DNA of 64,000 bases, from NCBI RefSeq assembly GCF_988243305.1, contig NZ_OZ547136.1; one strand, 5' to 3'. Made by a program: the position numbers and the translations under genes. Below, one piece after another: positions 34,318-36,670 of this stretch. The notes below the pieces were generated by a model. It saw nothing but the letters and a program-made list of their open reading frames with translations. It was not told where the DNA came from and made no database searches. Position 1 is the stretch's first letter; each line of letters begins with the position of its first letter.

Positions 34318-34551
34318 GATAGTGCCCTTTTTCTGAGATGGAAAAAGGGTGTCATTCAAAATCGGCATACCTTCCTTTAATGTATTTATTTTCCCAATAA
34401 ATATATAAGATTTACCTCATAATTACGTCCTAAAGTGTAATATTTTATTATTAATATATACGCCTACAATTTCCTGGAGTAAATAAATAACAATTAACAA
34501 GCATAATAGTGCCATTAATAAAATAGCATGCCATAAAAGGACTTTTCAGGG

Positions 34552-35730
34552 ATGAGTAATATTGTTTACCTGACAGTAACGGGAGAACAACAAGGAAACA
34601 TCTCCGCAGGTTGTGGGACTACTGAATCTATAGGTAATCGCTGGCAGAGTGGGCATGAGGATGAAATATTTACATTCTCACTCGCAAATAGAATTACTAA
34701 TACGGGACTTGGTTCACAGTTACAGGGTATGACATTTTGTAAATTAATTGATAAAAGCACTCCATTACTTATTAATTCCATTAACAATAATGAGCAATTA
34801 TTTATGGAATTTGACTTTTATAGAATCAATAGATTTGGTAGATGGGAAAAGTATTATTATATACAACTAAGAGGCGCTTTTTTATCGGCTATTCATCATC
34901 AGATCATTCAAAATCAACTGGATACAGAAACAATAACTGTTAGTTATGAATTTATCCTCTGTCAACATCTTATCGCAAATACCGAGTTCAGCTATTTGGC
35001 ACTCCCTGAAAATTATAACCGTTTGTTTTTACCAAATTCAAAAAACCAAACAAATAATCGTTTCAAAACTTTAAACAGCAAAGCTATTGGCAGGCTACTT
35101 GCTGCTGGTGGCGTATACAATGGGAACATTGAAGGATTCAGAGATACTGCGGAAAAACTGGGTGGAGATGCAATAAAAGGCTATGATCAAATACTAAATG
35201 AAAAAACAGCGGGCATAGCGATAGCAACAGCATCTATTCTTTTAACAAAGCGTTCTAATGTTGATACATATACAGAAATAAATAGTTACTTAGGCAAACT
35301 TAGAGGTCAACAAAAACTTCTTGATGGTATAGACATAATAGAAATAATATACATTAAGAGACCTTCAAAAGACTTAGCTAACTTACGAAAGGAGTTTAAT
35401 AAAACTGTAAGAAAAAATTTTCTTATCAAACTTGCAAAAACCTCCGAAGCATCTGGAAGATTCAACGCCGAAGACCTTTTAAGAATGAGAAAGGGCAATG
35501 TTCCTCTAAATTATAATGTTCACCATAAACTATCTCTAGATGATGGTGGTACTAATGATTTCGAAAATTTAGTATTAATCGAAAACGAACCATATCATAA
35601 AGTTTTTACTAACATGCAATCACGAATAGCTAAGGGAGTATTAGTAGGTGAAAGCAAAATCACTCCCTGGGCCATTCCATCTGGCTCAATTTATCCTCCC
35701 ATGAAAAATATTATGGAACCCACAAAATGA
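34552..35730 (+). CDS. yhhZ: Hcp-domain protein with C-terminal HNH/AHH-like nuclease toxin extension
   Basis: 392-aa ORF; N-terminal ~160 aa Hcp-like, C-terminus has the VHHKLSLDDGGTNDFENLVLIENEPYH motif; AT-rich gene. Confidence 0.8.
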   Translation: MSNIVYLTVTGEQQGNISAGCGTTESIGNRWQSGHEDEIFTFSLANRITNTGLGSQLQGMTFCKLIDKSTPLLINSINNNEQLFMEFDFYRINRFGRWEKYYYIQLRGAFLSAIHHQIIQNQLDTETITVSYEFILCQHLIANTEFSYLALPENYNRLFLPNSKNQTNNRFKTLNSKAIGRLLAAGGVYNGNIEGFRDTAEKLGGDAIKGYDQILNEKTAGIAIATASILLTKRSNVDTYTEINSYLGKLRGQQKLLDGIDIIEIIYIKRPSKDLANLRKEFNKTVRKNFLIKLAKTSEASGRFNAEDLLRMRKGNVPLNYNVHHKLSLDDGGTNDFENLVLIENEPYHKVFTNMQSRIAKGVLVGESKITPWAIPSGSIYPPMKNIMEPTK

Positions 35731-36221
35731 TGACTAAGACCCAAATAAATAAATTAAAAAAAATGATGAATGATTTAGACTATCCATTTGAAGCACCGCT
35801 TAAGGAATCATTTATTGAAAGTATAATCCAAATAGAATTTAATTCTAATTCAACTAATTGCCTGGAGAAGTTATGTAATGAAGTTAGTATTCTTTTTAAG
35901 AATCAACCTGATTATCTTACTTTTTTAAGAGCAATGGATGGATTCGAAGCTAATGGATTACGATTATTTAGCCTCTCGATTCCAGAACCTTCAGTTAAAA
36001 ACCTTTTTGCCGTAAATGAATTTTATAGAAATAATGATGATTTCATAAACCCTGATCTACAAGAACGGTTAGTGATCGGTGATGATAGCATTTCAATATT
36101 TACTTATGACATTAAAAATAACTTTTTTGAAATTAGAGATAATATTGGCACCGAAAATATATTCAGTTCGTTTAGTGATTTCTCTTCATTCTTAAACGAA
36201 ATCATGGACAGTTGTTCATAA
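35727..36221 (+). CDS. yrhA: putative cognate immunity protein of the YhhZ toxin (intact here)
   Basis: 164-aa acidic ORF whose start overlaps the yhhZ stop by 4 bp (ATGA), consistent with translational coupling. Confidence 0.65.
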   Translation: MMTKTQINKLKKMMNDLDYPFEAPLKESFIESIIQIEFNSNSTNCLEKLCNEVSILFKNQPDYLTFLRAMDGFEANGLRLFSLSIPEPSVKNLFAVNEFYRNNDDFINPDLQERLVIGDDSISIFTYDIKNNFFEIRDNIGTENIFSSFSDFSSFLNEIMDSCS

Positions 36222-36306
36222 TAATCAAAAGATAACAAAAATCATTGTAAACCATGCCATCTTTTTAGAGATTACCAGCAGAAAATTCCTTGTTCGAAAC
36301 TTAGCA

Positions 36307-36432
36307 ATGCAAGCTATGGAAAAACTTACAACGGAACTACACTCCTTAAGTGAGATGGACCGAAGACATGTAATCTCTATTTTAGCCGAAATAGCTAATG
36401 GCTATGATGATTTTAGTGACATGTTGATTTAG
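36307..36432 (+). pseudogene. short orphan ORF fragment in the toxin-locus tail
   Basis: 41-codon ORF MQAMEKLTTELHSLSEMDRRHVISILAEIANGYDDFSDMLI in AT-rich DNA; a further start-less coding-like stretch lies at ~36480-36636. Confidence 0.35.
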
Positions 36433-36670
36433 TTAGAATTTCACCCGAATCATAAGATTCTGATATCTTAAATAAGAAAATCCCGTTCGACGTTCTGAAA
36501 AAGAAATCACAAAATATTAGCAGATACTTATTTCGTGACTGTATATTATCCGATGAACTTTTTTCAAAACTAGCATTTAATAATATCTTTGACGAAGATG
36601 AACGCGTCTTTGCTCAAAGTATAACGCAGGAATAATAATATAACGTTCAACAATAATATTTATTATAATT

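Follow-up and report, generated by a model that had tools for sequence, protein, structure and literature searches.

Probable remnants of toxin-cassette exchange in the yrhA-yrhB spacer of Escherichia coli

Around ggt, the Escherichia coli chromosome carries yhhX (minus strand), yhhY, yhhZ, yrhA, a spacer of 449 bp, yrhB and ggt (minus strand), in that order. The questions raised by this locus are what the spacer is made of, and whether the small open reading frame annotated within it in K-12, yrhD, is a gene at all. These were addressed in a 64,000-nucleotide stretch of E. coli DNA (contig NZ_OZ547136.1; hereafter the window), for which a preliminary description had proposed that the spacer holds degenerate coding remnants left behind by cassette replacement. 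The evidence assembled below makes it probable that the spacer consists of decaying leftover genes at an exchange site for Hcp-borne toxin cassettes, comprising the relic of one gene and a probably non-functional yrhD.

The locus and its spacer

The current toxin gene of the locus is yhhZ (34552..35730, plus strand), labelled tssD/yhhZ in RefSeq genomes, which encodes an Hcp protein with an HNH-type extension. Its product matched the Pfam family T6SS_HCP (1.3e-12) and the NCBIfam family TIGR03344 (2.4e-36), with a further, weak match to HNH. Overlapping the yhhZ stop codon is yrhA (35727..36221, plus strand), the immunity gene in cognate position to the HNH toxin, with a product assigned to the YrhA family (NCBIfam NF038335, 4.4e-37). 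On the far side of the spacer, yrhB (36671..36955, plus strand) is an immunity-type gene of the Imm35 family, its product matching Pfam PF15567 with an E-value of 4.4e-22 (78.5 bits, gathering cutoff 27.5).

The spacer extends from the yrhA stop to the yrhB start (36222-36670), and the earlier account of an AT-rich region of about 450 bp was accurate. Its GC content of 31% resembles that of yhhZ (34%) and yrhA (29%), and differs from that of yrhB (45%), ggt (54%) and the window as a whole (50.5%). It was present in 3804 of 5426 complete E. coli genomes, always chromosomal and in a single copy per genome, with no paralogs elsewhere in E. coli or on plasmids. Following yrhA is a 250-bp segment of E. 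coli-only DNA (36222..36471, plus strand; the yrhD segment), then the gene relic (36472..36635, plus strand) and, as indicated by comparison with a locus carrying yrhB only (L012) and with the O157 locus (L014), a deletion junction together with the AT-rich leader of yrhB (36636..36670, plus strand). The sequence ATAATTATGAT at the yrhB start is common to all variants of the yhhY-ggt locus, including that of the window.

The length of the open frames in the spacer is not beyond chance. When the spacer was shuffled 5000 times with its composition preserved, the longest six-frame stretch equalled or exceeded the observed 69 codons in 15% of shuffles, and the 82 open codons of the K-12 allele were reached in 5%.

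A gene fragment upstream of yrhB

Unlike open-frame length, the homology of the second of the two fragments far exceeds chance. The start-less, coding-like stretch reported at approximately 36480-36636 is real: a stop-free frame runs from 36456 to 36635, ends in TAA at 36636-38, and lacks any in-frame ATG, GTG or TTG from which 25 aa or more could be translated. Homology nonetheless begins at an old start codon at 36472, rather than near 36480, and extends to 36635 on the plus strand, corresponding to a 5' fragment of some 54 of the 85 codons of a gene found in immunity position in other genera. The fragment was 47% identical over 53 aa to an 85-aa protein of Citrobacter youngae and 51% identical to the C. 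freundii version, and its Smith-Waterman score against the intact Citrobacter protein was 118, relative to a shuffle mean of 24 (sd 4.5; z = 20.8). A DNA profile built from five intact 85-aa genes with 300 nt of upstream sequence located the same stretch in the E. coli spacer (nhmmer, E = 1e-13), the match running from the ATG of the model to near codon 53. In the family alignment the fragment is colinear with residues 2-54 and retains the invariant columns K2, K3, L9, R45 and F47; the conserved C-terminal block R-x-R-M-N-..-G-..-E-Y-x-G-L-E-R is missing, and the reading frame is incomplete.

Several lesions can be read from the alleles. The old start codon (36472-74) is ATA in the window and ATG in B2 strains. 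Intact 85-aa genes start with ATGAAAAAAAT, and every E. coli allele is one base shorter there, indicating a 1-nt deletion in the A-run behind the old start, such that the homologous codons are in frame from 36474; the gap is visible in the B2 allele in the nhmmer alignment. Only 35 nt separate the end of the homology from yrhB, from which it follows that about 31 codons plus the downstream spacer were deleted. In K-12 there is an additional CAA>TAA change at the equivalent of 36510-12. The fragment is thus a pseudogene of the 85-aa family rather than a member gene, one that lies between yrhD and yrhB in E. coli, K-12 included, and has not been annotated.

The intact family comprised 33 database clusters, the named ones being from Citrobacter species and Budvicia and all entered as ‘hypothetical protein’; none was labelled E. 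coli, and the remaining clusters carried no source name. In four cases the intact gene begins 1 nt past the stop codon of a toxin gene, and all four toxins end in the same C-terminal domain: Hcp-417 of C. freundii, Hcp-402 of C. rodentium, the product of an orphan Rhs C-terminal gene of Budvicia and a toxin fragment on a further contig (L038). The shared domain has the signature ...GWRWSSHVHPDG...DPYG[RK]R...ISPEW[RK]P and a full JAMM motif (E...H-x-H-x7-S-x2-D), and its model has a JAB/MPN fold. At E <= 0.1 the only Pfam families to match these toxins were T6SS_HCP and RHS, with no hit to DUF4329 (Tox-JAB-2), and scans of Pfam, NCBIfam, PADLOC and PDB sequences returned nothing for either the toxin domain or the 85-aa protein. 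By the standard logic of polymorphic toxins (Zhang et al. 2012, PMC3482391), the 85-aa family occupies the cognate-immunity position, and from this gene position we infer that its members are the immunity proteins of the JAB-like toxin. An AF2 model of the 85-aa family was set aside owing to its pLDDT of 59. Intact copies, including that of C. youngae, which is an orphan, had a pN/pS of about 0.3 and are evidently under purifying selection, as judged from these substitution patterns. At blastn sensitivity, neither the JAB-like toxin domain nor an intact 85-aa gene was found in the 5426 complete E. coli genomes.

Budvicia additionally encodes 121-aa paralogs of the family with an N-terminal extension (L036 2846-3211 and 5988-6353), scattered through an array of Rhs orphans together with repeated 165-aa genes.

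In E. coli the fragment follows yrhA, not a toxin with the JAB-like domain; it thus lies downstream of a different toxin-immunity pair, whilst its relatives adjoin their own toxin. This arrangement identifies it as a displaced and decayed orphan of an immunity-position gene, downstream of a newer toxin-immunity pair. The preliminary description had proposed that both fragments of the spacer are leftovers of cassette replacement, and that a tblastn comparison with related toxin and immunity loci would bear on this. When all open reading frames of 16 related loci, including yrhA loci of six other genera, were compared with the spacer by tblastn, the 85-aa family gave the only matches, which fell in the second fragment, and yrhD had none. 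For the second fragment the proposal was borne out, in that at this site in Citrobacter its intact relatives immediately follow another toxin domain; for yrhD, which in the comparisons made here showed no similarity to a toxin tip or an immunity gene, it was neither shown nor excluded.

The standing of yrhD

The 41-codon ORF with an ATG start that had been reported at 36307-36432 (plus strand) was confirmed in the ORF listing, and alignment to K-12 MG1655 identified it as a nonsense-truncated allele of yrhD (b4612). In K-12 this is an annotated CDS of 51 codons, also called by PGAP, with the Swiss-Prot entry P58037 (‘uncharacterized protein YrhD’); its start corresponds to position 36316 of the window and its stop (TAA) to 36469-71. 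The window differs by a TAT>TAG change at codon 39 (36430-32) and by an ATG at 36307 where K-12 has GTG, which adds three codons upstream. The match to K-12 therefore spans 38 codons rather than the full 51, and 36 of the 38 are identical in protein sequence. PGAP flags the same stretch in an identical strain as an incomplete pseudogene.

Across nine alleles, yrhD occurs in three states. It is intact in K-12 and O145, carries TAG at codon 39 in the window clade, and in B2 strains combines TAA at codon 24 with TGG at codon 39, the start codon being lost as well (ATG>ATA) in two of the three alleles from these strains. Other rare changes were seen at the locus: in strain GF43 a stretch of 9 bp, ATTTTAGCC, is tandemly duplicated in frame within yrhD (L008 2595-2720, at about 36379-36387 of the window), and small-deletion alleles fuse yrhA to yrhD (P0003, P0010) or yrhD to the relic (P0001). 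The last of these, a 5-nt deletion joining the two frames, was considered as a possible ancestral gene and rejected as a rare strain accident.

Divergence between the window clade and B2 amounted to 8.1% in the extended yrhD frame and 7.4% in the relic, and was equal to the synonymous divergence of the neighbouring genes (pS of 0.08 for yhhZ and 0.10 for yrhA), which indicates that the spacer evolves at the neutral rate; it is thus not conserved across strains as non-coding DNA. Based on small counts of 4-21 substitutions per comparison, the extended yrhD frame had a pN/pS of 0.94-1.76, the K-12 yrhD ORF proper one of about 2.0-2.5 and the relic one of 0.3-1.2, alongside 0.28 for yhhZ and 0.11-0.15 for yrhA between E. 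coli clades. Within the yrhD ORF, 8-10 replacements were counted between clades against a single silent change. No Shine-Dalgarno motif of the GGAG/AGGA type was present within 25 nt before either ATG. Searches of 5.8 billion and 1.84 billion proteins, queried with yrhD joined to the second fragment, recovered no relatives of yrhD outside E. coli. The high pN/pS, the three different lesions, the lack of a Shine-Dalgarno sequence and the lack of homologs together make it probable that yrhD is not a gene, and it is most likely an accidental or relic ORF in a segment of junk DNA. At the least, it is well worth questioning whether a functional protein is made from b4612.

Some observations count against reading yrhD as decayed, and are those that would be expected if it were a genuine, young, E. 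coli-specific gene of 51 aa that was lost in this strain, with the second fragment as the only relic. Apart from its annotation as a CDS in K-12 and by PGAP, yrhD has been preserved whole in some three of every four genomes with the island (approximately 72-76%, as estimated from evenly spaced rows of two genome searches). A 2012 pan-genome study listed it as a hypothetical protein of unknown function with 68 identical copies (PMC3575317), and both an RpoD promoter and an H-NS site are attributed to it in a genomic-SELEX table (PMC3946193). The promoter hexamers, however, map to 36134-36163, inside yrhA and approximately 150 bp upstream. The excess of replacements over silent changes, the nonsense and start-loss lesions that two or more other clades acquired independently, and the absence of a ribosome-binding motif and of any homolog also speak against a gene, as does a length within chance for the composition. 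We therefore regard a genuine yrhD as unlikely.

If yrhD is not a gene, the segment may still have an origin that can be traced, and the preliminary description had allowed for fragments of toxin tips. Were it the degenerate C-terminal tip of the displaced toxin, the whole spacer would represent a single module of toxin tip and immunity gene, and the position fits well: the intact toxin genes stop 1 nt short of the 85-aa gene, and the K-12 yrhD stop (36469-71) abuts the old ATG (36472-74). There is also a stretch in frame 0, ‘DLVRISPES*’ (36435-36455), that resembles the ‘DLISPEWRP*’ terminus of the toxins (z of about 2, p = 0.04 before correction), a likeness treated here as chance. An alignment made by eye was persuasive, but failed under Smith-Waterman shuffling, a profile HMM and nhmmer. 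Against the four JAB-like toxins, yrhD or its upstream extension scored no better than shuffles (Smith-Waterman z of -1.7 to 1.8), the profile HMM of the toxin domain gave negative scores in all three frames of three spacer alleles, and the nhmmer homology did not extend upstream of the ATG of the relic. With JAB-like and HNH domains both considered, z for the segment did not exceed 2.4. A toxin-tip origin, rejected as unsupported, is slightly more doubtful than a genuine yrhD.

Other sources of the segment were sought and rejected. Smith-Waterman comparison of yrhD with the HNH domain, YrhB and a family of 78-87-aa proteins found no similarity, and blastn with a word size of 7 matched the segment to nothing in the DNA of related loci. 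Read as the C-terminal end of a further YrhA/SUKH-like gene (‘YDDFSDML’ compared with ‘FSDFSSFL’), it received an hhalign probability of 0.35% over a patch of just 8 residues, and as the N-terminus of the 78-87-aa, winged-helix-like family of Citrobacter, a z of 0.1-0.5. A joined ‘ancestral gene’ of 108 aa, formed from yrhD and the second fragment, recovered only E. coli fragments in the searches of 5.8 and 1.84 billion proteins. Divergent ‘YrhA’ proteins (82-90% identity) proved, as candidate outgroups, to be ordinary or recombinant E. coli alleles, and no outgroup allele was found from which to read the order of events or the ancestral state of yrhD codon 39 (TAT, TAG or TGG). The segment may have arrived together with HNH-yrhA, or may be all that is left of some other cassette.

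A functional non-coding spacer, acting as a promoter or leader of yrhB or as a small RNA with incidental open frames, is the least probable of these alternatives: its AT-richness, the H-NS site reported in K-12 (PMC3946193) and promoter-like hexamers at 36647-36675 in the yrhB leader would suit it, but divergence is at the neutral rate, no credible Rfam match was obtained, promoter-like and terminator-like sites (these hexamers included) are no more frequent than in shuffles, the yrhB-only variant has unrelated upstream sequence until about 10 nt before the ATG, and 36472-36635 is unambiguously homologous to a protein-coding gene. No present function is expected for the spacer, except possibly as AT-rich, H-NS-bound leader DNA for yrhB.

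Probable cassette exchange at the yhhY|ggt site

Decaying leftover genes therefore remain the preferred reading of the spacer, and the corresponding site in Citrobacter indicates how they may have arisen. Homologs of YrhA with 58-68% identity occur in Citrobacter and other genera. Between yhhY and ggt, C. youngae carries genes for an Hcp-HNH protein and YrhA, then the intact 85-aa ORF and an 87-aa ORF; in C. freundii the order is Hcp-JAB-like, the 85-aa gene, an Imm35 gene and a 78-aa gene, followed by ggt. E. coli has Hcp-HNH, yrhA, the yrhD segment, the broken 85-aa gene and yrhB. The C. freundii Imm35 protein (L031 4299-4577) is 70% identical to YrhB and syntenic with it, its gene following the intact 85-aa gene. 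Over the N-terminal 205 or so residues of Hcp, the C. youngae protein (HNH type) and the C. freundii protein (JAB-like type) share about 90% identity and diverge after ‘EKLGGDA’, and among the toxins at this locus Hcp residues 1-205 are approximately 75-95% identical, with differing C-terminal domains.

The following course of events would account for these arrangements. The ancestor of the E. coli island would have carried the 85-aa immunity gene followed by yrhB/Imm35, as in C. freundii. Through recombination in the conserved 5' region that encodes Hcp, the HNH-yrhA pair would then have replaced or overlaid the older pair of toxin C-terminus and immunity gene, leaving the old immunity gene behind as an orphan, which is still intact in C. 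youngae. In E. coli the orphan, its cognate toxin gone, would not have been maintained and would have decayed through a 1-nt slippage deletion in the A7 run after the ATG and a deletion of its last 31 or so codons with the spacer up to yrhB; later, lineage-specific hits would include ATG>ATA in the window and CAA>TAA in K-12.

In a fuller version of this account, to which we give roughly even chances, the relic marks a previously undescribed pair consisting of a JAB/MPN-fold toxin, carried on Hcp in Citrobacter and on Rhs in Budvicia, and an unrelated 85-aa immunity family; the E. coli lineage would once have required protection from this toxin and would since have lost it, and yrhD would belong to the same wreckage and be no gene.

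The gene yrhB may have a comparable history. Imm35 has been linked to papain-like Tox-PL1 and Ntox40 toxins (Zhang et al. 2012, PMC3482391), and the published Hcp-ET clans include a papain-like one, which together raise the possibility that yrhB is a further orphan immunity gene, from a third cassette, instead of the ‘heat shock chaperone’ it is labelled as in K-12.

Several other features of the site were observed. In E. coli, yhhY|ggt is a hot spot (34318-34551 and 36636-36992 in the window), with variants that are empty (60 bp), carry yrhB only, a DUF4225 cassette or the full island, or show IS1-mediated deletions (L012, L013, L014, L015, L004); in O157:H7 the DUF4225 gene is accompanied by about 730 bp and by a short remnant of the start of yrhB. 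In some lineages yhhZ is a pseudogene, with an internal stop in ST95-32 (L005 1831-3009) and a frameshift plus stop in O145 RM9872 (L009 827-2009), both equivalent to 34552-35730 of the window. Where yhhZ is broken, yrhA is intact and constrained; yrhB is frameshifted in O145. The 78-87-aa family occupies the last position of the island, beside ggt, in three species of Citrobacter (L016 4807-5070, L019 2581-2826, L031 4600-4836), gave faint matches of the winged-helix type (EarA-like, Lrs14) and is absent from E. coli. An extra gene of 294 aa lies between yhhY and hcp in C. youngae (L016 1671-2555) and C. freundii (L031 1590-2474), with a sub-threshold match to the PA3715 family (57.8 bits, cutoff 70), and is found in neither E. 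coli nor C. koseri. Finally, contig CABHOW010000200.1 (L022), from a MAG named ‘uncultured Flavihumibacter sp.’, carries this island with 94-99% protein identity to the genes of the window, most likely through contamination of the bin with E. coli.

The phenomenon itself is well known, and an ordinary genomic relic such as this leaves the understanding of such loci unchanged. The additions are small, being the relic, which would record toxin-cassette swapping at the yhhY|ggt site, the doubt over yrhD and, as a by-product, a JAB-like Hcp/Rhs toxin domain with an 85-aa partner family, named in no library. The comparison across three genera nonetheless offers what appears to be a clean, datable case of C-terminal toxin-cassette replacement on Hcp at a fixed chromosomal site, with an orphan immunity gene apparently kept in C. 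youngae and rotted in E. coli.

In its general plan the locus resembles the polymorphic toxin loci of Rhs, CDI and type VI systems, for which toxin-CT/immunity modules and orphan or displaced immunity genes have been described (Zhang et al. 2012, PMC3482391). As in those loci, a conserved N-terminal carrier, here Hcp, bears swappable toxin C-termini that each have their own immunity gene, an older immunity gene lies downstream of a newer pair, and the result is a heterogeneous polyimmunity array (yrhA, the relic and Imm35). Unlike the orphans of polymorphic loci, the E. coli relic is start-less, frameshifted and 3'-truncated, and is preceded by no recognisable toxin tip. A parallel in carrier is provided by the Hcp-ET effectors known from Enterobacteriaceae (Ma et al. 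2017, reviewed in PMC6099711 and PMC6730261): YhhZ is likewise an Hcp extended by an HNH-type domain, with its immunity gene downstream, and at the same site Citrobacter encodes Hcp proteins that are extended differently. The Citrobacter extension tied to the relic is modelled with a JAB/MPN fold, a type that is not among the published clans. Two clades of JAB toxins, partnered by Imm65 and Imm-NTF2-2, were previously defined (Zhang et al. 2012, PMC3482391). The Citrobacter and Budvicia domain shares with them the E...HxHx7Sx2D motif, a JAB/MPN-like model and carriage on Rhs and T6SS proteins, but differs in matching neither Pfam model, DUF4329 included, and in having as its putative partner an unrelated 85-aa family with no lipoprotein or NTF2-like match.
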